Shown here: piece after piece, positions 24,510 through 53,098 of the stretch
Layout of the letters: each line of letters starts with the position of its first letter
Numbering within the stretch: the stretch's first letter is position 1
Assembly (NCBI GenBank): GCA_964016885.1
Contig: OZ024753.1
Location: 18,104,001-18,168,000, forward strand
DNA: 64,000 nt
From: Eledone cirrhosa
Lineage: Eukaryota
Direction of reading: 5' to 3'
Notes under the pieces: generated by a model
The model's input: the letters and a program-made list of their open reading frames with translations, nothing else
The model's database searches: none
What the model was told of the DNA's origin: nothing
Made by a program: the position numbers and the translations under genes

Positions 24510-26486
24510 CTCAATGCAGTTAAACAGAGCCGAAAAATTGATTGGTTCTCTGGGATTAATAGACTTGAATCTAATAAGTTTATCCAATTCGATATTGATG
24601 CCTACTACACATCAATTTCACCCATCCTCCTCAATAAAGCCTTAATGTTGGCCATGAGAGTGTCCAGCCTTACACGATCGCAGGTAGATATTATACTAGC
24701 AGCCCGTAAAACTATTATTAAATTTGAGGACACTTTTTGGACCCGTAAAAACACGCCCAATAATTTCGACGTTACAATGGGTTCGAGCGATTCGGCCCAG
24801 GTTACTGATCTTGTTGGGTTGTTCCTCCTTAATGAACTATACGCTACCTTCACGCACCTTGTAGGCGGACTATATCGTGATGATGCATTGTTTATAATTA
24901 ACTCTAGTACCAACAATGTAGAACGTAATAAGAAGCTTTATAAGTTTTTTAATAACTACAACCTTTCAATCACGATAGATAGAAATGATAGAGCGGTTAA
25001 CTTTTTAGATGTGACTTTGGACTTGGCCGCTAATAGTTTTAAACCCTTCCATAAGCCTAATGAAATTCTTTCTTATGTTAGCCCCAATTCTAACCACCAT
25101 AAGTCTATGATAAACTCTATAATTAAGGGCGTTTCTAATAGGATTTCCACACTATCTAAGGACATAGGAACTTTTAATGAACATGCGGAGTACTACAATA
25201 ACGCCCTAGCAAATTCAGGTCACTCTAGTAGAATAAATTATAATAATAGTAACTTTAGAAAGTCTCCGCTTACTCTTAATAATAATAACATTATATCACA
25301 TAACATGGCTATGAATGTGAGTAGCAAACTTAGTAACCGTAGAACTTATATAGGAGTATCTGAACCCACCCATAAGTTATCCCACCGGACTCGTAATAAC
25401 AAATATAATACCTCTAAGAGACAAGTCGAGCCCCCTGTGCGCTCACGCATTGGTTTTGGTTTGGCTGGATCTTGTTCTAGTAATGTTGCTCCTACTGATC
25501 CTATCATTGGCCTTAATCCTCTTGTAGGGATTCTGGACAACAGCGGATCTACTAGAGGTAGAAACTATAATAGGCATAATGTAATTATGGCTGATTCTAT
25601 GAATGCGGCTTCAACTATTCCCGATAGTAACCCTAGTCTCGACGGTGGGACTTTTGATAGAGGTAGGGTCGATAAGAATAAAAATAAAAATAGAAGGCGA
25701 TTGAATACTTATTTCAACCCGCCATATAACCAGGATGTATCAACTAATATCCCTAGGTCTTTCTTCACTATCCTGGAGAAACATTTCCCCCCTTCTCACA
25801 AATACCATGGTATTTTTAATAAAAATGTTATTAAACTATCATTCTCTACCACCCCTAATATTAGTTCTCATTTAGCTAGCACTAATAATAGGAAGATTAG
25901 GGATGGATTCTCCTCTCTGCAGACTAATAGTCTGAATGCATCGGACAATGCTTTACCACCAGAACAGTCCTTATCTAATAGAGGTCCTAGGTGTAATACA
26001 TCACCACTCGAGCCAACCAATAACACCCGGAAGTGCAATTGTAGAGTGAGTGCTAACTGCCCTCTAAACGGTAACTGCCTTTCTAAGAACATTGTCTATG
26101 CTTGCGAGGTTATATCTAATTCCTTTAAAGGAACATATATAGGATCTACTTCAAACACTTTTAAGACTAGGTTTAACTCTCATATCTCTAACTTCAAACA
26201 TATTAGGTTTAAGAATTCTACCTCTCTAGCGCATTATATCTGGGATCTTAAGGGAGCTTGTATACCATATAGCCTTAACTGGAGTTTAGTAGCACGATCT
26301 AACCACCTTTCTGCACATAGTAAGTTTTGTAATCTCTGTATACTTGAGACACACTCTATTATTTTCTCTAGCGTACCCTTACTGAATAGAAAGTCTGAGA
26401 TATTCTCCTCTTGCCCCCATGCAATTTCTAATTCTTACTTTTATTATAAACCCAAATGTTCTAGTAGTACAAATCGTACCCATTAG
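24510..26486 (+). CDS. Penelope-like reverse transcriptase with GIY-YIG endonuclease (N-terminally truncated)
   Basis: The frame is open upstream of the annotated Met back to 24510 and includes RT motif FIQFDIDAYYTSI. Then FDVTMGS, LYRDD, FLDVTL, FNPPY, CxCx5Cx5C (CNCRVSANCPLNGNC), IVY...YIG...RFNSH, CNLC, CPH. Confidence 0.92.
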   Translation, partial: LNAVKQSRKIDWFSGINRLESNKFIQFDIDAYYTSISPILLNKALMLAMRVSSLTRSQVDIILAARKTIIKFEDTFWTRKNTPNNFDVTMGSSDSAQVTDLVGLFLLNELYATFTHLVGGLYRDDALFIINSSTNNVERNKKLYKFFNNYNLSITIDRNDRAVNFLDVTLDLAANSFKPFHKPNEILSYVSPNSNHHKSMINSIIKGVSNRISTLSKDIGTFNEHAEYYNNALANSGHSSRINYNNSNFRKSPLTLNNNNIISHNMAMNVSSKLSNRRTYIGVSEPTHKLSHRTRNNKYNTSKRQVEPPVRSRIGFGLAGSCSSNVAPTDPIIGLNPLVGILDNSGSTRGRNYNRHNVIMADSMNAASTIPDSNPSLDGGTFDRGRVDKNKNKNRRRLNTYFNPPYNQDVSTNIPRSFFTILEKHFPPSHKYHGIFNKNVIKLSFSTTPNISSHLASTNNRKIRDGFSSLQTNSLNASDNALPPEQSLSNRGPRCNTSPLEPTNNTRKCNCRVSANCPLNGNCLSKNIVYACEVISNSFKGTYIGSTSNTFKTRFNSHISNFKHIRFKNSTSLAHYIWDLKGACIPYSLNWSLVARSNHLSAHSKFCNLCILETHSIIFSSVPLLNRKSEIFSSCPHAISNSYFYYKPKCSSSTNRTH

Positions 26487-28458: not shown

Positions 28459-29106
28459 ACTTTCTTTTTATTTGCCACCAGGGCATCAAAGAGGGGACAA
28501 GTACAATGGGGGGAGTTTACATAACAAGGCGTCCTCAATAAGGAGGAGGCAATAACAAAATATAAAATATAAAATATAACAAAAATAAATTAAAAAACAA
28601 AATCCTCAATAGCGAGGAGGTGCCTTGGGAGGTCGCATACACCCCCGAAAAAAGAGTGCAGAGAGAGGGTGCTCCCATTAACTTTCATCTTTCTCACCTA
28701 CAGTCTGATGTAGAGTGAAGGCCCATTCACACAGGCAATTATCCCCACTTTGACCCATCTTTCATAGAAACGGCTGGGGTGCAGCACCTCTCTCTCCATC
28801 CTGATTCTTCTTCCGAAATGATATCGGAAGAAACGGAGCAGTTGTTGGCCAGAGAGAAAGGTGTCTGACCTCAGTCCTTTCAGACGCGTCCACCATACAA
28901 CCTCTTTCGCCATGGCTATTACGCACAGAAACACCGCCTCTCCTTCGTTTTTGAAGAGGGGGCGGCTTGATCGTTACAATAGACTCGGTGGTCAACCGGA
29001 TCAGTCCCATCCTTGACAGCAGTTGTTCGACAAAGCCCCACAGATCGGCAATGCCCGATCAGTGTACCAATGCGTGTGCAACGGTTTCCTCGTTGCACAC
29101 GCATCA
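28459..29106 (-). mobile_element. 5'-truncated, frameshifted Tx1 fragment (element C), close to element A
   Basis: Translates to FLCVIAMAKEVVWWTRLKGLRS...RRIRMEREVL, matching the ORF2 C-terminus. 3' end AATAAAAAAGAAAG followed by (TC)n/(TA)n. Confidence 0.9.
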
Positions 29107-29272
29107 TAGACAGATAAATATACACGGGTGTGTATGATTGTGTATAGAAGATTATATTAATAAAAGGAATTCCAACTTTGTCTGATTTACTCGTTTTATT
29201 TACAATCCTTTAAAATTTATAATGGTATTAGAATGAAATAGTGTGGTAGAATATTAAATGTTAAGTATTAAT

Positions 29273-40799: not shown

Positions 40800-42704
40800 A
40801 TGTTAAACGCAGCGAACGAAAATAGTGGTGGGGGGACAGCGGTAAGAGTTGTAAGCTCGCACGCTTTAGTCCTCCCTTCCTTCCCAACTAACGTCATAGA
40901 GAAGGAAGGAAAAATTAAAATAAAAACGGACGAATCTGCGGAGAAAAAATTAAATGACGAAAACATAAATCTGGACTTGGATTCCAACAACGAAAAAAAA
41001 AAATTTGAAAAATTGCATGACAATACTAATAACACAAACAAAGACACAACAAACAAAAAAATAACAGTTGAAAATAACACCATATCAGAAAACAAAGCAG
41101 ACGACAAGATTTCATTTGCACAGAAAACAAAGAAATCTTTGACTTATATAGCGGAAAACATTTCAGATGTGGTACGAAGGATCACGGACGCCAAACAATA
41201 CATAAGTGAAGGTGAGAATGGTATTTTATCGGTAAAAATGCCTCAAGAATTCACGAAAGACATTGAAAGCCGAACGGTCAAGTTTCGGACCATCAACAAC
41301 AGTACAAAAAAACCTGAACAGCCTTCTCAAGCAGATATCAAAACAGTACTCACAGAAGTACTGAATGAAACAACTTTCATAAGAAAAGACAGACTGTATG
41401 GAAGCCTAGCAATTATCATGAAGAACGAATCGGCGGCAAAAAAATGTGCTTTGTCACCGATTCGTTCGAAAAATTTCACCTTTTATCCATCTTATATGGG
41501 GAAAAGAACTCAACGCATATGGCTGGATGCAATGATGCCAGATGTGGACTACTGCTGGCTCATAGCTGGCTTCATCGATCCAGTGAATGACAACGTGATT
41601 TCCATTGGGAAAACCACAGGCAATGCGTTCAGTGGAACAGGTATAGAGCTGGTAGTACAAATGAAGCCTGAACGCATCGCCCAAATACCCGACAGAATCC
41701 TATTAGAGGACCACGGGTATATAAACATTAGCGTGGAGGGGAGAAGGCCGTCCTGCCATATCTGTGCAGGCAGAGGGCACCTGAAGGCCGCTTGTCCCCA
41801 ACTCAACAAAAAGAAAACCCTGCTACCAACACCAGCTCCACCACCACCACCACAACAGATAAACAAACAACAAAACTCAGTCCCACCCAACCCGTCCCTC
41901 AGTAAAACCACAACACCACCACAACACAAACAGTCACAACACATTACCCCAAAACAAAATACAGGCCCACCCAACCTCTCACTCAATAAAACAACACAAC
42001 CACCGCAGACACAACACACAACACAGTCTAACATAGTGACATCCATCTCCCCCACAAAGAAAACCAACACGGAAACATTACCAGCAAACATACCTCTTCC
42101 CTCCAACACTGAAGATAACCCAACGAATTCGGAGGAAGAAACGGAGTCCTTCAGACAGATTAAAAGGAAAAAAAGAAAACATGTGCAAAACACACAAGGA
42201 CAAACAACCCCCACCCAAATCGCAACACAATCCAGCAAAACAGAAAACACCCCTCCAGCAACAAACAAAACCAAACCTGCCCCCCCCCCCCTCTTCGAAA
42301 CACTCACACCATCGGAAAAAAAGACATTACACTATACTTACATCAACAGAAACAATAATAAATTAAATGAACTCATATACAATAATCCTTCGGTACAAAC
42401 CGAAGGTGTAAACTTTGTTTCGTCAGAAAACCACCCACATTTAAAACTAATAAAAATCCCAATGAACCTCTACCAAAAACTAAAAAAGGATTTTAAGGAG
42501 GACGTAGGACCACCCTCTGTCAAACCCATAAACCGCGTCCTACTAAAAAGCTTTCCCCCTCCCCTTCCCCTCCCCAACACAACTCCAAACACCCCAACCC
42601 CACCTCACACTGACGACCCCACACCACCACAAGACACCCCTTCACCCAACACCCCCGACCCCATGGAAGTCGTGCAACCCGAACCCCGGGAAGCGGAAAG
42701 GTAG
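40800..42704 (+). CDS. LINE ORF1 (gag-like nucleic-acid binding protein), element A, 634 aa
   Basis: CCHC knuckle CHICAGRGHLKAAC, Pro/Thr-rich linker, lies upstream of ORF2. Confidence 0.88.
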   Translation: MLNAANENSGGGTAVRVVSSHALVLPSFPTNVIEKEGKIKIKTDESAEKKLNDENINLDLDSNNEKKKFEKLHDNTNNTNKDTTNKKITVENNTISENKADDKISFAQKTKKSLTYIAENISDVVRRITDAKQYISEGENGILSVKMPQEFTKDIESRTVKFRTINNSTKKPEQPSQADIKTVLTEVLNETTFIRKDRLYGSLAIIMKNESAAKKCALSPIRSKNFTFYPSYMGKRTQRIWLDAMMPDVDYCWLIAGFIDPVNDNVISIGKTTGNAFSGTGIELVVQMKPERIAQIPDRILLEDHGYINISVEGRRPSCHICAGRGHLKAACPQLNKKKTLLPTPAPPPPPQQINKQQNSVPPNPSLSKTTTPPQHKQSQHITPKQNTGPPNLSLNKTTQPPQTQHTTQSNIVTSISPTKKTNTETLPANIPLPSNTEDNPTNSEEETESFRQIKRKKRKHVQNTQGQTTPTQIATQSSKTENTPPATNKTKPAPPPLFETLTPSEKKTLHYTYINRNNNKLNELIYNNPSVQTEGVNFVSSENHPHLKLIKIPMNLYQKLKKDFKEDVGPPSVKPINRVLLKSFPPPLPLPNTTPNTPTPPHTDDPTPPQDTPSPNTPDPMEVVQPEPREAER

Positions 42705-42737
42705 GTCTCTACACTCTCCTTTGGCTCTGCCGCCCAC

Positions 42738-45700
42738 ATGGATGTGTTAAGAGTAGGATGTTTGAATGCACGTGGCCTGGGCTCAACTTGGAAGCAAGCA
42801 AAGCTTCTAAATGACCTCAGGTCATGTAGTATAAATGTAATGGTTATCTGTGAGACTCGAATCAGCGTCATGCGGCAGCTGGCCCCCACCTTCGATGACT
42901 TTGAGGTGCATGCATCTCTCTGTCAACCTGGAGGTGGGGGTGGGGTTGTCGTACTGCTGCAAAAACACCTGGGTCTTGCCGTACAAGTTGTGCAGTCGGA
43001 CCCGGAGGGTCGTTTGTTGGTGCTAGACGTTGGCAGTAGTGAAAGTGCGGCCTTGAGACTGGTCGCCGTCTACTCCCCTTTCGGAGCTGAACGGCCCGAC
43101 TTCTTCCAGCGTTTGGAGACTTTTCTGGGAACGTCGCGTTCCCTGCTTCTAGCGGGGGATTGGAATGACATCCTGGATGCACGTTGGGACTATGCAGGAG
43201 CATGTCCTAATAGAGGGGGGTGTAACAGCCTCAAGGGGTTACTCGACCGTTTTAACTTGGTCGATAGATATCGACTAGATTTTCCAACTGTGCCTACCTG
43301 GACTTGGAGAAACCACAGTGGTCAATCTAGATCGTACTTAGATAGATTCTTAGTTAGAAGTAAGGATAGGGACATATTAAGCTGTCCAGAAATGCGCACG
43401 GTTGGCTACACGGATCACAAATTAGTGACCTGCGTGGTCAATCTCGAGAAAACACATAGACAGGGTCCCGGTTACTGGAAACTTAATTTGTCTTTACCGG
43501 CAAAAGAGACTTACAGAAACCGGATTAGCAGATTAGTTAAGGAGAGGTTGACGGGTGCAATCGTCAACAACCGATGGTGGGCATCTCTCAAAAGAGAGAT
43601 TAGAACAGAATCAATAAGTTATAGCAAGATGTTAGCTGCCGATAGGAATAGAAACGAGAAAGAATTAACAGGTAAATTAGAAGAGGCAATCAAGAGCGAA
43701 GATGTGGCCAGAGTGCTGGCATCGAGGACGGCCTTGAACCAGTTTTTCGATGCAAAGCACGAAGGCTGCGTCATTCGAAGTAAAATACGTGCTCTAGGTA
43801 ATGAGGGGGCCAAAGCCGTTGGATGGGCCCGAGTGACAGAAGCTAAGAGTGGAAATCGATCCACCATCCGGTCGTTGCAAGACGAAGATGGACGAGTGAT
43901 CCGGGAGCCTAAGCAGATGTGCGAGGCCTTTCAAAAGCACTTTGCCCGATTGTTCGGGGGAGGCGAGCGTCCGGGCCGGGGCGTGGATTTCGGTCCATAC
44001 CTCGACGACCTGCCGCGTCTCTCGAACGAAGAGGCAGAGTCCTGCGAGGGACCAATCTCGGCTGATGAGATCGGAGATGCGCTGAGCCAATGCAGCAGAC
44101 GCAAATCTCCAGGTCTCGATGGTATACCTTACGAACTTTATTTAGCAATGCCGGTCTTCTTCTCCGAACTCCTCGAAGCGGTCTACTGCAATTGGCAGCA
44201 GAACGGGAGAATTCCTTGTTCTGTAGCCAAGGGCGTAGTCACGCTGGTGAGGAAGGACGAGAACAAGGAGGATAGTATAAATAATTTTCGGCCCATAACC
44301 CTGCTAAACACAGAGTTAAAGATTTTGGCCAAGGTGTTAGCAAAGTGGTTGGCGCTTGTCGTGGGTGGCCTGGTGGGAGATGCGCAGACATGTGCTATCC
44401 CATCCAGGTCCATTCACGATAACCTCCACCTCATGCGATACATCATAGAGAGGGTTGGAAACAAACCCGGCTTCGGTGGGGCCCTGATCAACTTGGATCA
44501 GTCTAAGGCTTTCGATAGGGTCGACCATGGTTACCTGAATGCGGTGCTAGCGGCGGCTGGGTTCGGTCCTGTTTTCAGAGGCTGGATCACTGCCCTACAT
44601 AGCAACCACATCTGTTCTAGGATCAAGGTGAACGGCTACCTTTCGAAGCCGTTCGAAATCACACGATCCATTCGACAGGGGTGCCCTCTCTCCTCCCTTC
44701 TGTACGTATTGACTCTCGAGCCTTTACTGAGGAAGTTGGAGTTGTTGCAGGGTATCCCCCTGGAACCAGGATTGAGCAAAGCGGTGTCGGCCTACGCCGA
44801 TGACGTAACAGTAATGGTATCAACCGACTCGGAGATCGAGGCGATCGGTACCTTACTGGAGGAGTACGAAAGGTTGTCAGGAGCGAAACTGAACCGGGAA
44901 AAATCCATCGGGCTGCAACTCGGAACGTGGAGAGGCAGACCGATGCCTCCTGACGGTGTCGTCGGACACTGGACGGAGGGCCCGGTAAAGTTGCTTGGGG
45001 TCTGGTTTGGACCGGACCTCCAGGTGGAAAAGAACTGGAACGAGGTTACGAACAAGGTGTTTGCACTAACCCAGAAATGGGCCAAGTGTAAGCTGTCCCT
45101 AAAAGGCCGGGCGGAGGTGGCGAACATTTACATAGCGTCCGTCACTTACTACCGCCTGACTGTCGTGCCTTGCCCTAAGGAAACACTCACCACCATGGAA
45201 CGCATGCTCTTCCAATTTCTTTGGAAGAAGCGTCCTCCTATGGTGAGAAGATCCATCTGCTGCCAACAACCTTCGAAAGGAGGGCTGGGGATGCCGTGGT
45301 TGATGATGCGTAGGCACGCATTAAGGCTACGGCACCTACAGGTATTCCTCACTGGTCAACCGGTGTGCGCTCCGTTCGTGAAACGAGCCTTTCCGAGACT
45401 CGTCTCACTCACCGAGCTACAGTCCTGGGTCAAGCAAAGATCCGGAAAACTGGGAGACTGGCACACTGAGTGTGCTCAGGCGCTCAGGGCTCTCTGGCAA
45501 GCGGGCCAGGCCATCGGTGGAGAATCCACCTCATCATTCTATAGAGGGCTGGTGGCTAGCAGGGGCGATGACACCCTTGGAGAGTCGCTGGACATGGAAG
45601 AAGACGAACTGGCCAGCCTGTTCGGTAGGACTTTCGGCCCAGGACCAATGGACAACTTCCAGAAGTCACTGGCCTGGCAGTGCTACCGAGGGGCTCTACC

Positions 45701-46175
45701 CGTTCGAGAGAGGCTCTACAGACACGGGCGCCCGGGCAGGGATCCCTCAAAAAAGATTTGCCCTAGATGCGTGCGTCACGAAGAAACCGTAGCGCACGCA
45801 TTGGTGCAATGTCCGGGCGTGGCTGATCTGTGGGGCTACGCCGAACAACTGCTGTCGCGGGTGGCGCCGATTAAATTGACCGCCGAGTCCGTGATGACAA
45901 TCAAACCGCCTCCCCTCTTCACAAAGGAAGCAAAGGCAGTTTTTCTGTGCGTAATAGCCATGTTGAAAGAGGTTGTTTGGTGGACACGATTGAAAGGTCT
46001 GAGGTCAGGCAACTTCCTCTCTGGCCATAGTCTGGTCTACTTCTTCCGATATCACTTCGGAAGAAGGATAAGAATGGAGAGAGAGGTGCTTGGCCACAGG
46101 CAGTTTTATGAAAGGTGGGTGATAGTGGCGAGAATGGCTCGTGTAAATGGGCCTTCTCTGTATACCATCCTGTAG
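42738..46175 (+). CDS. LINE ORF2 (APE endonuclease, reverse transcriptase, C-terminal zinc finger), element A, 1145 aa
   Basis: LNARGL, ICET, GDWN, YLDR, TDHK (APE); KSPGLDG, RPITLLN, KAFDRV, QGCPLS, YADD (RT); CPRC-x7-H-x4-C. Confidence 0.97.
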   Translation: MDVLRVGCLNARGLGSTWKQAKLLNDLRSCSINVMVICETRISVMRQLAPTFDDFEVHASLCQPGGGGGVVVLLQKHLGLAVQVVQSDPEGRLLVLDVGSSESAALRLVAVYSPFGAERPDFFQRLETFLGTSRSLLLAGDWNDILDARWDYAGACPNRGGCNSLKGLLDRFNLVDRYRLDFPTVPTWTWRNHSGQSRSYLDRFLVRSKDRDILSCPEMRTVGYTDHKLVTCVVNLEKTHRQGPGYWKLNLSLPAKETYRNRISRLVKERLTGAIVNNRWWASLKREIRTESISYSKMLAADRNRNEKELTGKLEEAIKSEDVARVLASRTALNQFFDAKHEGCVIRSKIRALGNEGAKAVGWARVTEAKSGNRSTIRSLQDEDGRVIREPKQMCEAFQKHFARLFGGGERPGRGVDFGPYLDDLPRLSNEEAESCEGPISADEIGDALSQCSRRKSPGLDGIPYELYLAMPVFFSELLEAVYCNWQQNGRIPCSVAKGVVTLVRKDENKEDSINNFRPITLLNTELKILAKVLAKWLALVVGGLVGDAQTCAIPSRSIHDNLHLMRYIIERVGNKPGFGGALINLDQSKAFDRVDHGYLNAVLAAAGFGPVFRGWITALHSNHICSRIKVNGYLSKPFEITRSIRQGCPLSSLLYVLTLEPLLRKLELLQGIPLEPGLSKAVSAYADDVTVMVSTDSEIEAIGTLLEEYERLSGAKLNREKSIGLQLGTWRGRPMPPDGVVGHWTEGPVKLLGVWFGPDLQVEKNWNEVTNKVFALTQKWAKCKLSLKGRAEVANIYIASVTYYRLTVVPCPKETLTTMERMLFQFLWKKRPPMVRRSICCQQPSKGGLGMPWLMMRRHALRLRHLQVFLTGQPVCAPFVKRAFPRLVSLTELQSWVKQRSGKLGDWHTECAQALRALWQAGQAIGGESTSSFYRGLVASRGDDTLGESLDMEEDELASLFGRTFGPGPMDNFQKSLAWQCYRGALPVRERLYRHGRPGRDPSKKICPRCVRHEETVAHALVQCPGVADLWGYAEQLLSRVAPIKLTAESVMTIKPPPLFTKEAKAVFLCVIAMLKEVVWWTRLKGLRSGNFLSGHSLVYFFRYHFGRRIRMEREVLGHRQFYERWVIVARMARVNGPSLYTIL

Positions 46176-46452
46176 GTAAAGAAGTAAAGGAGGGGGAGCA
46201 CCTTCTCCATGTGCTCCCCGGGCAAAGGATTGCACACTTTTTCGGAGGTGTGTGCAACCCCCATCACGTCCCCTCCCTTTTAAGGTTATTTTCGATTATT
46301 TTCATGTTACACCCTTTTTACTCGATTATATGTAAACTCCCCCTTTGTATTTGTCCCTTCTTTTTATGCCTTTATGGTAAATAAAGAAATCTATCTATCT
46401 ATATATATATATCTCTATATATGTATATATATATATATATATATCTATATCT

Positions 46453-46743: not shown

Positions 46744-46790
<47 letters not shown>

Positions 46791-47050
46791 TTTCTTTATT
46801 AACCACAAGGGTTTACATAAAGTAGACATTAAGGACAGTGCAGGACAATGCAGGACGGTACAAATGGGCATTTCTGCGTGTAAAAAAACAAAAACAGAGG
46901 ATGTAACAAAAATAACAATGAAAATAACAATGAAAAATTCCCCAATAGGGGGGAGACTTCGGAGGGACATTTGTGGAGAAAGCCCAGTAAAAAGCCACAA
47001 TGACCCTGACCACCAAGGCAAGTGCCCTCTCCCAGTTTTCCACCTTTAGT

Positions 47051-50000
47051 TTACAGATATATACTCAGAGTCGGCCCATTCACTCGGGCCATTCTTGCTT
47101 CTCTCACCCATCTTTCAACAAAATGCTGGGAAGAGAGCACTTCCCTCTCTACTCTGATTTTCCTTTTCAAATGAAATTTGAAAAAGTCAATCAGAGCATC
47201 ACCGAAGAGGTAAGTGCTCGTCTTCAGCCCTTTCAAACGTGTCCACCATACTATCTCTTTCGCCATGGCCACCAGACAGATAAAAACTGCCTGCCCTTCC
47301 CGGCTAAAGGAGGAGGGCGGGGCAATCCTCACGATGGACTCAGATGATAGCTGGATCCGTCCTAAACGCGACAGCAGGTGTTCGACATAAACCCACAAGT
47401 CAGCAATTTTCGGACACTGGACGAGTGCGTGCAGGACGGTTTCGTCGCCCTGCGCGCATCTCGGACATGCCCGGCTGACGGCACCTCCATGCCTGTAGAG
47501 TTTATCCCGAACTGGCAAGGCTCCTCGGTAGCACTGCCAGGCCAGAGATTTCTGGAAGTTGTCCATAGGCCCTGGCCCGAAAGTTCTTCCGAAGAGATTG
47601 GCTAGTTGATTTTCGTCGACGCCTAGAGTTTCCCCAAGTACGTCGTCGCTCTTCCCCTCCACTAATCCTCTATAGAACGCCGAGGTGGAGTTTCCACCGA
47701 TCACATTGCCCGATTGGTCGAGGGCTGTGAGCGCCTGAAGACATTCCAGTCTCCAGGCGCTCCCTCTCGGTCTTCGCTTGACCCAGGACTGCAGCTCCGT
47801 CAAGGAAACGAGCTGGGGAAAAACGCGTCTAGCAAACGGCGACCACACCTGATCACCGTCGAGGAAGAGGTGGAGATGTCGTAGCCTGAGCGCGTGCCTG
47901 CGCATCATCAGCCACGGCATGCCCAGCCCTCCACGTAGCGGGTGTTGACAACAGATGGACCGCCTGACCATCGGAGCACGTCCCTTCCACAAAAAGCGAA
48001 AGAGCAAACGCTCCAGCGCAGTCAGGCGAGGCTTAGGACAAGGTACGACGGTTAGGCGGTAGCAGATGACAGACGCGATGTACGCGTTAGCCACCTCCGC
48101 TCGACCTTTCAGGGATAGCTTCCTCTCCGCCCATTTCTGGGTGAGAGAAGCCACCCTGCTCGTCACCTCGTCCCAGTTTTTGTCCGTCTGGAGGTCCGGA
48201 CCGAACCAGACCCCTAGCAATTTAACCGGTCCGTCCGTCCAGCGCCCGACGACGCTGTTGGACGGCATGGACCTGCCTCTCCAGGTGCCGAGCTGCAGGC
48301 CCACTGACTTTTCCTGGTTGATCATTGCTCCTGTCACCGCTTCGTATTCTCTTAGTGTAGTGCCGATCGCCTCGATGTGTTTGGCGTTCGACACCACTAC
48401 GGTGACATCGTCCGCATATGCTGACACGGATCTTCCGCATCCTAGTTCGCGCGGGACTCCCCTCAACGTCTCCAGTTTGTGCAGTAATGGCTCGAGAGTC
48501 AATACGTACAAGAGGGACGAGAGGGGACATCCTTGGCGGACCGAGCGCATGATGTTGAACGGTTCCGACAGGTGACCGTTCACTCTCACCACAGAGCAGA
48601 TGTCGCTGTGCATGGCAGCGATCCAGCCTCTGAAGACGGGCCCAAAGCCAGCCGCCCTCAGGACTGCCGCTAGGTAACGATGGTCGACCCTATCGAAAGC
48701 TTTCGACTGATCTAAATTGATCAAGGACCCACCCGTGCCAGGTTCCCTAGCTACCCTCTCTACGATGTATCGCATGAGGTGGAGGTTGTCGTGGATGGAT
48801 CTGTCGGGAATGGCGCATGTCTGCGCCTCTCCCACCAGACCACCAACGACAAGCGCCAACCTCTTTGCTAGCACCTTGGCCAAAATCTTAAACTCTGTGT
48901 TTAGCAGAGTTATGGGCCGGAAATTGTCTATGTTATCCCCCTTGTTCGGATCCTTTCTCAGCAGTGCCACCGCTCCTCGGCTCACAGAACTGGGAATTCT
49001 CCCGTTCTGTTGCCAGTTGCAGTAGACGTCCGCCAAGAGGCCTCCGAACAAGTCTGGCATCTGTACGTAAAGTTCATAGGGCAGACCATCCAAACCAGGC
49101 GATTTACCCCTTGTGCAGCCAGTCATTGCCTCCCTTACTTCAGCGGCTGTTATCGGCTTTTCGCAACACTTCGCCTCAGTGGCCGAGAGCCGCGGCAGTC
49201 CGTCGAGGTAGACACTAAAGTCCATCCCTCTACCCGGCCCCCCGCTGCCCCCGAACAGCTGAGCGAAGTGTCGCTGAAAAGCTTCACACATTTGCCCGGG
49301 ATCGAGTAGCATGCGCCCGTCGTGGTCCACCAAAGACCGGATCGTGGCTTTGTTGCCACGACGCGCCTCCGCCACTCGGGCCCATTGAACGGCTTTCGTC
49401 CCCTCGTGTCTGAGAGCACGCACCCTAGCTCTGACAACGCAGCCTTCGTGCTTTGCATTGAAGAATTGGTCAAGGGCCAATTTCGCCGCAAGCACGTCGG
49501 TCGCAATGCCTTTGCTAAGCGCCTCGTCTAATTTTCTAACTAGTTCTCCCTCTGCTCTATTTTTCTCTATTGCTAAAGCCTTACTAAACCTAATCGATTC
49601 TATTCTAATCGCTCTTTTCAGAGCAAACCACCACTTGTTGTTGACGATGGCCCCCGTCAACGCCCGCTTAACTAGTTCGCTAATCCGGTCTCTGTAGGCC
49701 TTGCGCGCTGGTAAGGACGCGTTTAGCTTCCAGTAGCCGGGTCCTCGTCTATGAAGCCTATCTAAGTCAAGCACACAGATCACGAATTTGTGGTCCGTGT
49801 AGCTGACTATCTTGAATTGTGGACAGCCTATGCTAGACCTATCTATTTCCCTACAAAATACTCTATCTAGATATGATCTGGATGACCCTATGCGGTTTGT
49901 CCAAGTCCACATTGGCACATTCGGGAAATCCAATCGGTACCTGTCAGACAGTTCAAAACGCCTGAGCAGGTTGGTGAGGCTCTTGCACCCTCCACCCCTA

Positions 50001-50470
50001 TCCGCTAATCCCACACAGTCCCAGCGTGCATCTAAGATCCCGTTCCAGTCGCCCACTAACACTAAAGAGCGCGACGTTCCAAGAAAGGTCTCCAGACGCC
50101 GGAAGAAATCAGGCCGCCCTGCTCCTGTCGGGGCATAGACGGCCACTAGCCTGAAAGCTTGCCCGTCTCCGCTGGTCACGTCCAGCACCACCAGCTTACC
50201 CTCTGGGTCCAGGAAGATGGCCCGTATGGCGAGATCCAAACCTCTCCGAAAAAGCACAGCAACTCCTCCACCCGATCCAGGACGGCTGGGAGATGCGTAC
50301 ACATCGTAGCCGCCGAAGATCGGTGCGAAGGCCCGTGCTTCGGAGATTCTGGTCTCGCTGATGGCCACTACATCTATGTTTAGTGACCTGAGGTCGTTGA
50401 GCAGGTGACCCTGCTTCCATGACGACCCCAAGCCACGCGCATTTATGCTGCCTATTCTGAGTGAGGTCAT
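47051..50470 (-). CDS. LINE ORF2 (APE, RT, zinc finger), element B, 1139 aa
   Basis: Same motif set as element A ORF2 and clearly homologous to it along its length. Confidence 0.97.
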   Translation of the reverse strand: MTSLRIGSINARGLGSSWKQGHLLNDLRSLNIDVVAISETRISEARAFAPIFGGYDVYASPSRPGSGGGVAVLFRRGLDLAIRAIFLDPEGKLVVLDVTSGDGQAFRLVAVYAPTGAGRPDFFRRLETFLGTSRSLVLVGDWNGILDARWDCVGLADRGGGCKSLTNLLRRFELSDRYRLDFPNVPMWTWTNRIGSSRSYLDRVFCREIDRSSIGCPQFKIVSYTDHKFVICVLDLDRLHRRGPGYWKLNASLPARKAYRDRISELVKRALTGAIVNNKWWFALKRAIRIESIRFSKALAIEKNRAEGELVRKLDEALSKGIATDVLAAKLALDQFFNAKHEGCVVRARVRALRHEGTKAVQWARVAEARRGNKATIRSLVDHDGRMLLDPGQMCEAFQRHFAQLFGGSGGPGRGMDFSVYLDGLPRLSATEAKCCEKPITAAEVREAMTGCTRGKSPGLDGLPYELYVQMPDLFGGLLADVYCNWQQNGRIPSSVSRGAVALLRKDPNKGDNIDNFRPITLLNTEFKILAKVLAKRLALVVGGLVGEAQTCAIPDRSIHDNLHLMRYIVERVAREPGTGGSLINLDQSKAFDRVDHRYLAAVLRAAGFGPVFRGWIAAMHSDICSVVRVNGHLSEPFNIMRSVRQGCPLSSLLYVLTLEPLLHKLETLRGVPRELGCGRSVSAYADDVTVVVSNAKHIEAIGTTLREYEAVTGAMINQEKSVGLQLGTWRGRSMPSNSVVGRWTDGPVKLLGVWFGPDLQTDKNWDEVTSRVASLTQKWAERKLSLKGRAEVANAYIASVICYRLTVVPCPKPRLTALERLLFRFLWKGRAPMVRRSICCQHPLRGGLGMPWLMMRRHALRLRHLHLFLDGDQVWSPFARRVFPQLVSLTELQSWVKRRPRGSAWRLECLQALTALDQSGNVIGGNSTSAFYRGLVEGKSDDVLGETLGVDENQLANLFGRTFGPGPMDNFQKSLAWQCYRGALPVRDKLYRHGGAVSRACPRCAQGDETVLHALVQCPKIADLWVYVEHLLSRLGRIQLSSESIVRIAPPSSFSREGQAVFICLVAMAKEIVWWTRLKGLKTSTYLFGDALIDFFKFHLKRKIRVEREVLSSQHFVERWVREARMARVNGPTLSIYL

Positions 50471-50505
50471 GTTTAAAATAGAGTGGAAAAGATGGGAAAG
50501 ACCAC

Positions 50506-52605
50506 TTACCGTATTTTTGGTAGAGGAGGGATGGTTTTTACATCCCTTTTCACTTGATCGTCTGGTGAAGGGACCGTTGAATCGTCCCTTCGGCTGGTCG
50601 TCGGCTCTTCTAAGAGAATGTCTGAATATACTCTTCGATTAATGGTTCCTCCTAGGTCCCTGAAATCACCAACTGCGTTGGGGAATTTCGTTTTAATGTT
50701 TGTGTATTGTTTCTGTGCTATTTTTAGCAGTCTTATGTTAGTTGGCGTTTTGATTGGTGCTGGTATTATGTAGTCCTGTTGTGAAATGTCTGTGTGTTCA
50801 ATTATGTAAGTCATTAGTTTCTTGTTGTGTGTGTTTATTGCCGTGCATTTGTTTTTCTGGGGGTGGGGTGTGGTTCTGCTATTTTCTTGTCGTTGTTGCT
50901 GGGTGTGTGTGTTTTGTTGTTGTGTTTGCGATGTTGGTGCTTGTGGTGGTGGTGTTGAAGGTGTTGTTGGCGGTGGGGTTGTCGCCGGTGGTGATGGTGG
51001 TGCTGGTGTGGGTGGTGATGGTGTTGGTGGTGTTGCTGCTGTGGGTCTCTTTGCAGTAGACTTTACCCTTTTCTCATTTCTTTCCTCCCTTTTCAAAGGC
51101 GACGATGCGCTGCTTCTGCGTTTGTGCCTTCTTGAGACCTTTTGCCATCCCTCTCCCACCTCACACTCCATGTCTGATTCTGTAAGGTCGGGGAGGGGTA
51201 CCAGCTCCACTCTTTCACTTGTTGTTGTTGGTGATGTTTGCACTGGAGTCTCTGTTGCAGCTGCATTTGGTATTGCTGTTGTTGTTGTTAATATTTCCAC
51301 TGCTGCTGCTGTCTTTGATTTCCGTGGAGTGGGTATGGGTGCCACGGACCTATCGTTCCTGGTTGCCGCTTGTCCTGTTGCTGGTAGCCGTGGAACCGGA
51401 TTCGGGAGGAGGGGGGTTTTCTCCTTTCTCAGGGTCTTCTCGTTGCAGAAGGCCCTGAGGTGAGTCTTCGATCCACAGCGAAAGCATTTCGGGCGTTTGC
51501 CCTCAACACTTATGGGCAGTTGAGTGCCGTTATCGAAGTCTATCACATCCGGGATAGCTTCGATGCACTCCTGGTTGGTTTGTATTAGCATCTCAATGGA
51601 GGAGCCGACCCAATCTTCTCTTACTTTTTTCTGTACTTGCAGTACAGTTGTTTTGTCCTCGATTCCGACGAGGACAGACGCGGCCAGCCAAGAAGGGGTC
51701 ATTCCGGGGGGGACGTGGGTCAGTTTGACCCTCACAATTTTTTGCCCGCAGTAGGAGGGCACCAACACCATTTCCTCGCTCCTTAGGGTCACTACTGATT
51801 GGGCCTTTGCCTCCTGGGGTGTGGCAAAAAGTACGTCTACGGTGGCGTATTTTTTGCCTCGGGTGATGTGCGTTTTCCTCTGCCACACAGACCCCAAGGC
51901 TTTTTGTATTTGGGCCTCTGTGGCTCTTTCCACCCTACGGGATTTTGTACTTACTGTACGGTACGTGACCGTACAGTGCTCTTGGGTTTCGAAAAAATTT
52001 TTCGCTGCCTTGCAGATTGCTCGGTGTCCGTTCTTTGTCACCATCTTCTTCGCTTCCTCTAATTCCTCATTTGTTATGAGGATTGTTTCCAGGTTTTTCG
52101 CAATACCTGCAAATGAGATTGGTTTTTCTCTGCTGTTGTTGTTGTCGTCAGAGCTGCTGGTACTTTTGTTGTTGCTGCAGGTACTACGACTACTGCCTCC
52201 GCCGCTGTTGCTGTGGTTGTTGTTGGTGTTGCTGCTGCTAATGCTGTTGTTGTTTATGCTGCTGGTGATGCTGTTGCGGCTGCTACTGTTGTTTTCATTG
52301 TCACTGTTGCTGTTGTTATTACGGCTGCTACTGCTATTATTCCTGACGTCAGACGAATGAACTGGGTTTTCGTATTTCCCGCACACCTGTTTCGTCGCTG
52401 TCGTCGTCGTCGTGGAGAAACCTTGCACGCTTTGCACGAGACTTTTCTTTTCTTTCGTCGCTTGCGAAAGAGAAGGTAGGGAGAGAGACACATTTAAAGA
52501 AGGGAGGGAGAGAGACAATCTTCTCTCTCCTGTAGTGATGATTGAGGAAGAAGAAGACGGAATGAGTGGGAGTGACGTATGAAATTTTTTTTTTTTGGTA
52601 GCCAT
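50506..52605 (-). CDS. LINE ORF1, element B (ATG at 52605, MATKKKK...)
   Basis: CCHC knuckle CFRCGSKTHLRAFC preceded by ISVEG, as in element A. The track start at 52638 is a TTG. Confidence 0.88.
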   Translation of the reverse strand: MATKKKKFHTSLPLIPSSSSSIITTGERRLSLSLPSLNVSLSLPSLSQATKEKKSLVQSVQGFSTTTTTATKQVCGKYENPVHSSDVRNNSSSSRNNNSNSDNENNSSSRNSITSSINNNSISSSNTNNNHSNSGGGSSRSTCSNNKSTSSSDDNNNSREKPISFAGIAKNLETILITNEELEEAKKMVTKNGHRAICKAAKNFFETQEHCTVTYRTVSTKSRRVERATEAQIQKALGSVWQRKTHITRGKKYATVDVLFATPQEAKAQSVVTLRSEEMVLVPSYCGQKIVRVKLTHVPPGMTPSWLAASVLVGIEDKTTVLQVQKKVREDWVGSSIEMLIQTNQECIEAIPDVIDFDNGTQLPISVEGKRPKCFRCGSKTHLRAFCNEKTLRKEKTPLLPNPVPRLPATGQAATRNDRSVAPIPTPRKSKTAAAVEILTTTTAIPNAAATETPVQTSPTTTSERVELVPLPDLTESDMECEVGEGWQKVSRRHKRRSSASSPLKREERNEKRVKSTAKRPTAATPPTPSPPTPAPPSPPATTPPPTTPSTPPPQAPTSQTQQQNTHTQQQRQENSRTTPHPQKNKCTAINTHNKKLMTYIIEHTDISQQDYIIPAPIKTPTNIRLLKIAQKQYTNIKTKFPNAVGDFRDLGGTINRRVYSDILLEEPTTSRRDDSTVPSPDDQVKRDVKTIPPLPKIR

Positions 52606-53098
52606 GTTTTTTTGTTTAAAATGAAATTTTGGGTACAAAACCCCAATAACTGGCTATTTAACCCCGAAGGGCCAAATAACGGACAGAAAGACCCCTCTCA
52701 CGAGGAGGAGGGTGTCTTTATCAACAATTTGGTTCAAGTTTTAAACAATTTACAATTGTTTTAACGGTTAAAAATTACTATACCTTACAGAGCCGAGCCT
52801 CCGTCAACCATGGCATTCAATAATAATAATAATAATGTAATAGAAGTACGGTTTGTTAAACCTTCATTAGGTTTATTGATTGGTGACGCGCGCTTTACTT
52901 TTGATCAGCTGAAGGTTCGATCTATATCGATTTGACCCAGTACTGGATTCAAAAGCTCATCGAACCACTGTTCTAGTAGTGACAGAATGTATTATTATAT
53001 TACAATTTGTCCAACTCCACACCCCGTCAGTGACGTGAACCTAAACATCCAGCGTTCACCTGGGTGAAGCAACAGTAATTCCACGGTACACTCCATGG

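Follow-up and report, generated by a model that had tools for sequence, protein, structure and literature searches.

The DNA analysed here, 64,000 nucleotides (nt) of Eledone cirrhosa (contig OZ024753.1, positions 18,104,001 to 18,168,000; this whole stretch is called the window, and its numbering is used throughout), carries a complete retrotransposon that lacks long terminal repeats (non-LTR), element B, in which a splice donor motif overlaps the stop codon of the first open reading frame (ORF1), shortly before the second one (ORF2) begins (Table 1). Two further elements, A and C, lie in the same window. An earlier note on this DNA, hereafter the original prediction, regarded the donor as the start of a 53-nt mini-intron that joins ORF1 to ORF2. 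Our data support a real and conserved donor, whereas the mini-intron is most likely not real. Instead, we consider the donor a likely binding site of the U1 small nuclear ribonucleoprotein (snRNP), which would be masked by pairing with the 3' untranslated region (3' UTR), and element B the likely offspring of such a donor splicing into a downstream element; to this combined reading we give an even chance.

ORF2 of B matches an N-terminal APE-type endonuclease (PF03372, E 3e-14), a reverse transcriptase (RT; PF00078, E 1e-28) and PF13966 (E 7e-8), and carries a C-terminal cysteine motif at residue 1002. L1 endonuclease structures are its top PDB matches, and NCBIfam returned nothing beyond a weak RT match. 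A C-x2-C-x4-H-x4-C knuckle is present in ORF1 of both B and A; a separate ORF1 with a CCHC knuckle is a typical trait of Tx1 elements. The closest named proteins among the matches listed come from Octopus sinensis and Argonauta, and no named Tx1 reference occurs among the best 120 of 1,252 homologues; the same search gave relatives at 50-54% identity. Judged by its sequence, B appears to behave as a long interspersed nuclear element (LINE) of the L1 group with a possible preference for microsatellites, and the Tx1 label is that of the original prediction and not the outcome of an RT phylogeny. The comparisons with published systems made here and below extend to the available parts of the sources, which are given as PubMed Central (PMC) numbers. 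B resembles the microsatellite-targeting Tx1-clade elements Kibi and Koshi (PMC4494074) and the L1-Tx1 families of Octopus vulgaris (PMC13282606) in having two ORFs, APE, RT and a C-terminal zinc motif, in its insertion within a simple repeat and in its recent activity; the comparison with microsatellite-targeting L1-group LINEs also rests on PMC11203168. The available parts of the first two of these accounts (PMC4494074, PMC13282606) make no mention of an inter-ORF donor, a long-range helix or families born by splicing.

The genome searched comprises 3.0 Gb. A 221-bp probe of B gave 40 scored matches, all 100% identical and many of them in tandem at a distance of about 6.06 kb, and the unspliced junction motif of B has 1,531 matches. 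Together with family P2 (2,195 matches), B is among the largest families seen, and the sequences characterize it as a young LINE family of more than 1,500 copies. (ATT)n surrounds B as well as the tandem joints in loci L333 and L334, flanks having been counted in these few copies only. Head-to-tail arrays of the same or of mixed families, with nothing but (ATT)n in between (e.g. G000 C2:110322088-110352693, L334, L333, L335), are consistent with repeated insertion of elements into one another's tails.

Table 1. Features of elements A and B (window coordinates)
Feature	Position	Strand	Details	Basis
Element B	46789..52818	-	Complete non-LTR retrotransposon, about 6.03 kb, inside an (ATT)n microsatellite	Ends from the window and the tandem-copy joint in L334
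B ORF1	50506..52605	-	699 amino acids (aa) counted from the first ATG; TAA stop within the donor; CCHC knuckle at 51445-51486
B ORF2	47051..50470	-	1,139 aa; own ATG with A at -3; APE endonuclease, RT, zf-RVT; stop TAA
B AATAAA	46795..46800	-	Directly ahead of the (ATT)n tail
B donor motif	50504..50512	-	ACG/GTAAGT over the ORF1 stop; cut site 50510/50509, phase 2
Helix 5' arm	50482..50510	-	Predicted; covers donor -1 to +27 and with it the pyrimidine run	Minimum free energy (MFE) fold
Helix 3' arm	47017..47044	-	Predicted; 6-33 nt past the ORF2 stop	MFE fold
Mosaic junction	50552..50553	-	P1 part ends at 50553 (P1 donor cut); P2 part begins at 50552 (right after CAG in P2)
ORF1 tail from P2	50510..50552	-	43 nt (42 nt plus one extra G, giving P2's own reading frame)
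Candidate mini-intron	50457..50509	-	53 nt, GT to AG; exists as sequence, unsupported as a functional intron
Element A donor and stretch	42698..42751	+	Donor on the ORF1 stop with the matching 51-nt stretch, which ends in AAG
Element A ORF2 stop	46170..46179	+	Acceptor-like CTGTAG with an ORF1-frame stop behind it

Donor conservation and complementarity to the 3' UTR

Read directly, ORF1 of B ends CGG TAA with the stop inside ACG/GTAAGT, as originally described, and this is the sole 9-mer on the sense strand of B with at most one mismatch to the textbook donor consensus. A pattern of the ORF2 start that left out the Arg codon matched 5,496 further copies. The group sample consisted of 60 long stretches out of the first 100 listed and 20 more from the two parent families of B (P1 and P2, see below); 59 copies were sorted into 14 groups with an ORF2 identity of 65-97%, and two copies for which no donor was called (L070, L087) were excluded. 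Over 13 representatives, the G of position -1, the GT and the T of position +6 are invariant and +5 is kept in 12. The donor stands in phase 1 in seven of the 14 groups, where ORF1 ends Gly-Lys-stop or Gly-Glu-stop, including three copies with an intact ORF1 (L067, L072, L086). Phase assignment is firm for F6, F3, P1 and the phase-1 group of F5, whose ORF1 runs without a stop through the 300-640 codons that lead to the donor; for F2, F8, F3b, F5b, F7 and the phase-2 group of F5 it is based on shorter frames and homology. Within F5, a single-base difference upstream of the donor flips the phase between subfamilies, while the acceptor region is unchanged. As its conservation extends over groups of both phases, the donor is not accounted for by the stop codon or by the encoded amino acids.

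As regards the surroundings of the donor, an in-frame ATG, often in the context CCATGG, lies about 13 codons ahead of the ORF1 stop in A, F1, F5, F2, F6 and F8 and is not found in B, P1 and P2. A candidate conserved poly(A) signal about 300 nt 5' of the donor was rejected, as it occurs in eight of 12 representatives in different frames, is missing in F3 and in the phase-1 group of F5, and is explained by base composition.

The MFE fold of 3,874 nt of B predicts 26 pairs that join the donor region to the sequence after ORF2, 3.4 kb apart. The helix would begin at the ORF1 stop, reach to a point about 12 nt short of the ORF2 ATG, and leave about 220 nt to the 3' end of the element. Its duplex energy of -54.4 kcal/mol exceeds that of the best of 43 control windows (-34.2) and was reached by none of 300 shuffles (z = -6.8). 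In 13 of 16 elements across the clade, none of the ORF2 control windows reaches the score of the helix duplex, and z values against shuffled partners range from -2.9 to -9.6 in 13 of the 14 groups. The own 3' partner ranks first in seven groups, and most of the remaining ones are beaten by close relatives. In MFE folds of the whole region, the helix forms in four of five elements (B, P2, F1 and F6). Thus, on the sequence level, the donor region and the beginning of the 3' UTR are complementary and matched by family. In F2, F8 and F6, the donor is kept although the helix leaves +3 to +6 partly unpaired; therefore, the helix does not explain the donor, which is under a constraint of its own. Given its two codon phases as well, we regard the donor motif as real and its conservation as one of the nucleotide sequence.

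Two short hairpin-like inverted repeats, one per parent, stand in tandem ahead of the donor of B (50527-50600, reverse strand). Comparable repeats precede the donor in F3 and in F2/F6/F8, and the donor-proximal one of B forms in the MFE fold.

Mosaic origin of element B

ORF1s are said to have been exchanged between LINE lineages by means that are unclear. Element B is a mosaic of the families P1 and P2, with a junction that is exact to the base in the sequences compared. Upstream of the joint B shares 84-96% identity with P1, and from 50552 on 94-100% with P2. Each of four P1 copies agrees with B at all of the last 50 bases ahead of the joint, the P2 copies at only 14-15 of them. On the P1 side, 24 of 30 loci (drawn from 95 matches) continue at the joint with GTAAGT, the other six being B variants. 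On the P2 side, CAG stands at the joint in 30 of 30 loci, this CAG being part of the search pattern (from L073), and the alignment to B begins at base 1. The CAG sits 42 nt before P2's own donor, and YAG (Y, pyrimidine) precedes nine of the 442 positions in the relevant part of P2. The joint is non-homologous and duplicates the last ORF1 module; an origin of the 43-nt tail of B by local tandem duplication was ruled out by the finding of the parent P2.

It is probable that B was founded by splicing of a read-through RNA and subsequent retrotransposition, whereby ORF1 was swapped. The substrate required for such an origin is a P1-P2 tandem, and locus L333 is one: a P1 copy is directly followed by a P2 copy, with the P1 donor 5.7 kb upstream of the CAG. 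For the origin of B only, a switch of the RT between templates next to the helix, at an AG microhomology of 2 nt and with no splicing involved, is the less probable explanation. It also fits, since P1 and P2 have an AG in common at the joint, the bases directly before the P2 CAG are purine-rich with no pyrimidine tract, and the edge of the predicted helix coincides with this position, from where it could direct the switch. Moreover, one of 22 B variants (L130) has a deletion that starts exactly at the B donor cut and is rejoined at a 3-nt microhomology with no AG, so that non-splice joints do occur there. However, a template switch leaves it to coincidence that a non-homologous joint falls on the exact donor cut and after one of the few YAGs, and the tandem substrate for splicing exists. 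The probable splice origin of B suggests that donors of this type do get used.

A comparable route is already known from SVA_F1 (MAST2) and pt_SVA_D6 (STK40), subfamilies founded by an upstream exon spliced to an internal acceptor with the junction at the exon end (PMC6139936). These are non-autonomous, took up host exons and reached about 90 copies, whereas the autonomous B would have gained the whole ORF1 and promoter of another LINE and exceeds 1,500 copies. Besides, spliced human L1 RNAs (SpIREs) retrotranspose and leave copies which are described as dead ends (PMC5860796). The likely spliced product B, in contrast, founded a large autonomous family and, if its origin is true, represents a successful counter-case.

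Further mosaics at the donor site were not evident among 12 profiled groups. A mosaic of another kind, L062 (G000:C1:18927857-18934657), has an ORF1 and 5' ORF2 of F2 type fused to a 3' half of B/P2 type; the switch lies within ORF2 and not at the donor, and from residue 733 on the aa identity to B is 96%.

A proposed masked U1 site and alternative readings of the donor

LINEs need an unspliced two-gene RNA in the cytoplasm. In the reading we favour, the donor would be exposed during transcription of the 3.4-kb ORF2, and U1 binding would favour full-length transcription, by analogy with the donors of EVD and HIV. As soon as the 3' UTR emerges, the helix would cover the donor and the RNA would leave unspliced. 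ORF2 would then be translated from its own ATG by reinitiation past the ORF1 stop, with the helix bringing the 3' end near this stop; by analogy, it may also shield the ORF1 stop from nonsense-mediated decay (NMD). In a tandem, a read-through P1-P2 RNA would have been spliced from donor to CAG and retrotransposed, swapping ORF1 and founding the family of more than 1,500 copies. More tentatively, this can be taken as a self-timed switch: the donor on the ORF1 stop would recruit U1 only for as long as the 3' UTR of the same element has not been made and closed over it, with the RT gene looped out, and in tandem arrays the donor would let the spliceosome graft promoter and ORF1 of one element onto the ORF2 of another, giving birth to autonomous families like B. 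This reading draws on a donor kept over families with 65-97% ORF2 identity, a family-matched partner and a family of 1,500 copies joined at the donor. Two questions thereby become accessible to tests: in what way a LINE employs a U1 site and silences it afterwards, and whether ORF1 modules are exchanged by splicing in tandem arrays.

The donor of the Arabidopsis Ty1/Copia element EVD (PMC5580714) and the major donor of HIV-1 and foamy virus (PMC12789967) likewise lie near the end of the structural gene and outweigh the acceptor, and there U1 binding aids full-length, unspliced RNA. These are LTR elements or retroviruses for which there is proof by experiment and whose poly(A) sites are known, whereas no such site was found for B, and a 3' UTR mask is not described in the available parts of these accounts. 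The human L1 donor G98U99 is similarly conserved, rarely used and proposed to be hidden in RNA structure, and its spliced RNAs leave fossils; it lies in the 5' UTR and is kept for a RUNX3 site, while that of B lies on the ORF1 stop with its predicted mask 3.4 kb away (PMC5860796). Our literature search, which largely left out subscription journals, Repbase Reports and supplements, returned no account of such LINEs with a donor placed on the ORF1 stop, of a long-range mask for it or of an ORF1 swap by splicing.

Several observations weigh against a masked U1 site. A conserved poly(A) signal for which U1 would be required was not found, an AATAAA 330 nt upstream being expected by composition (0.62 per 200 nt). 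The helix is weak in F3b (z -1.4), in F7 and F8 the 3' UTRs of unrelated groups outscore the own one, the whole-region MFE fold of element A lacks the helix, and runs of pyrimidines and purines readily pair anyway. In addition, the register of stop codons at the end of ORF2 points to real splicing in groups whose ORF2 ends in TAG.

This last point bears on a competing explanation, in which ORF2 is an alternative intron in the clade: the helix would bring the donor to the AG at the ORF2 stop and thereby set the level of an ORF1-only mRNA, and B and P2 would have lost this acceptor, their donor and helix being relics or working with a different one. We regard this as rather unlikely. It is in line with an ORF2 end of YTAG, at the foot of the helix, in 12 of the 14 groups, the exceptions being B and P2 with TAA. 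Joining the donor to this YTAG leads to a stop in the ORF1 frame within three codons in 10 of the 12, in a register that equals the donor phase (permutation 36/792, p = 0.045). The groups fall into about three clades and the cut-off of three codons was picked after seeing the data, so that this p value is overstated; a universal rule of a stop in register is broken by the phase-2 group of F5, which is abundant, and by F7. The shGAG RNA of EVD offers a functional parallel (PMC5580714). Among the variant matches described below there is no copy without ORF2 (unspliced: B 15/15, F1 1/1, F3 24/24, A 21/21), but this is weak evidence against such splicing, since an ORF1-only RNA makes no RT in cis. 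Also against it, the helix covers the donor itself, and B and P2 keep a perfect donor together with the helix though they have no acceptor at the ORF2 stop. The original prediction had offered the acceptor-like CTGTAG at the ORF2 stop as an alternative partner of the donor; the motif is indeed present in A and C, but not in B. For B, the ORF1-only mRNA as proposed fails, because there is no AG at its ORF2 stop and a join to the next one, the AAG 7 nt on, runs to the 3' end with no stop, in P2 as in B. Hence, an ORF1-only mRNA is possible in the clade, but not by that route in B.

In both B and P2, a TAA stands 2 nt behind the stop of ORF2 (47046-47050, reverse strand, in B), in a register of the phase-1 type despite their phase-2 donors; possibly, this is the vestige of a phase-1 ancestor. 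Element C (28698-29150, reverse strand) consists of just a 5'-truncated and frameshifted ORF2 end with 3' UTR and carries no donor.

Less probable still is selection on the helix for an action in the cytoplasm, where it would fold the 3' end back to the ORF1 stop for NMD shielding or for steering reinitiation or cis-binding of the ORF2 protein, with the donor being minor or separate. The position of the predicted helix between ORF1 stop and ORF2 ATG, close to the 3' end, suits such a function, and precedents exist: a poly(A) tail folded near a stop suppresses NMD (PMC2689704), and translational coupling in SART1 needs RNA structure while L1 reinitiates over a 63-nt spacer (PMC5972666). However, this leaves unexplained why donors of both phases, and unpaired ones as well, retain the complete consensus. 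A cytoplasmic role is compatible with the masked U1 site as a second function of the helix.

The candidate mini-intron between ORF1 and ORF2

As originally described, B contains a GT-AG stretch of 53 nt (50509 to 50457), its excision yields an Arg codon at ORF2 codon 5 in the ORF2 frame, and ORF1 and ORF2 are mutually out of frame. Element A shares the donor on the stop and a stretch of 51 nt, but its acceptor is AAG. The further claim that the phase is kept was not confirmed, and the in-frame join is for the most part no more than chance: the donor is in phase 1 in half of the groups, as compared to phase 2 for the Arg AG everywhere, and a stop at +2 of the donor together with an AG that opens an AGA codon (both phase 2) gives an in-frame join at any spacer length, so that this length is irrelevant to the frame. 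The proposed pyrimidine tract adjoins the donor and stops about 18 nt ahead of the AG; at -14 to -5 there are six pyrimidines out of 10 in B and four to six across the groups. As 16 of the 21 pyrimidines of the B spacer are paired in the predicted helix, the tract is explained more simply in this way than by U2AF binding.

Across the groups, the stretch is 39-66 nt long, with only 39 nt in F1, and ends in CAG in six and in AAG in eight of the 14. The join is in frame in seven groups, and in frame with YAG in three (B, P2 and F7). F3 and B possess the same two AGs, yet in-frame joining would demand different ones, and the single-base phase flip in F5 occurs with the same acceptor region. By the reasoning of the original prediction itself, out-of-phase AGs in half of the groups compared count against a fusion intron. 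The ORF2 ATG, which the excision would delete, is found in all 14 groups and its context is conserved as well (purine at -3 in 13). An AG at Arg5 was also considered as a sign of selection and discarded, as 24 of 49 invariant Arg columns are AGR (R, purine) in all 10 families, 17 being all CGN and eight mixed.

Genomic copies of a spliced RNA were not found either. The spliced B junction has no match in the genome against the 1,531 unspliced ones. Among B copies with a base other than G after the exon end, none of 22 is a mini-intron join (20 point changes and two deletions without AG); 49 of 49 such copies of P2, which has the same spacer and acceptor, are unspliced, and none of the 24 variant matches of F3 is spliced. 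These variant patterns need the exact exon end and cover, as first bases of the second exon, A/C/T or GT plus non-A in B, A/C/T in P2 and F3, GT plus non-A in F1, and GTA plus non-G in A. With no spliced copy in about 3,700 B and P2 copies, spliced templates should make up less than about 0.1%, unless splicing itself blocks retrotransposition. For comparison, SpIRE97/622 alone accounts for 1.8% of the full-length human L1s (PMC5860796).

A fusion protein made by this excision, similar to that of the Ogre elements, has a strong donor, a CAG acceptor and an in-frame join in B, P2 and F7 in its favour, an in-frame TAG follows 5 nt later in several phase-1 groups, and splicing would delete the 5' arm of the helix, so that spliced copies would be absent anyway if this arm were needed for retrotransposition. 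The splicing of the inter-ORF spacer of Ogre LTR elements, on average 274 bp long, is known to join their ORFs (PMC6317226), whereas the spacer in the clade of B is far shorter and its ORF2 has a conserved start of its own. In view of the out-of-phase groups, the AAG acceptors and the lack of spliced genomic copies, we consider the mini-intron very improbable, while the donor from which the original prediction started stands as real and conserved.

Among contigs of four sequencing runs of unrecorded kind that were compared with B, those of X4 and X6 cross the spacer unspliced, and the 53-nt joint is not among the joints listed (15 of 293 and 15 of 19); both results are neutral as evidence. A single contig of 1,412 nt from run X1, also of unrecorded kind, covers 50444-51855 with the minority alleles of the window, unlike run X2, and could correspond to one expressed subfamily. 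Homologue searches with a length range that included a fusion of about 1,830 aa had 1,669 and 1,632 aa as the longest among the matches listed, with uninspected contents; greater lengths lay outside the range.

Apart from this, two B copies (L130 and L121) have deletions that begin at the donor cut or 5 nt past it and are rejoined within ORF2 without AG. An Octopus sinensis gene model annotated as tectonic-3-like (P0001) includes 61 aa of B-family endonuclease with 64% identity, by exonisation or annotation error; it was discarded as a fusion product, as the endonuclease piece starts at residue 30 and not at the candidate acceptor. Elsewhere in the window, a frame of 658 codons is open at 24510-26486 on the forward strand. 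It has no Pfam or NCBIfam match, and its C-terminal part contains a Cys cluster and a YIG motif, which we take to be reminiscent of an element with a Penelope-like RT plus GIY-YIG.

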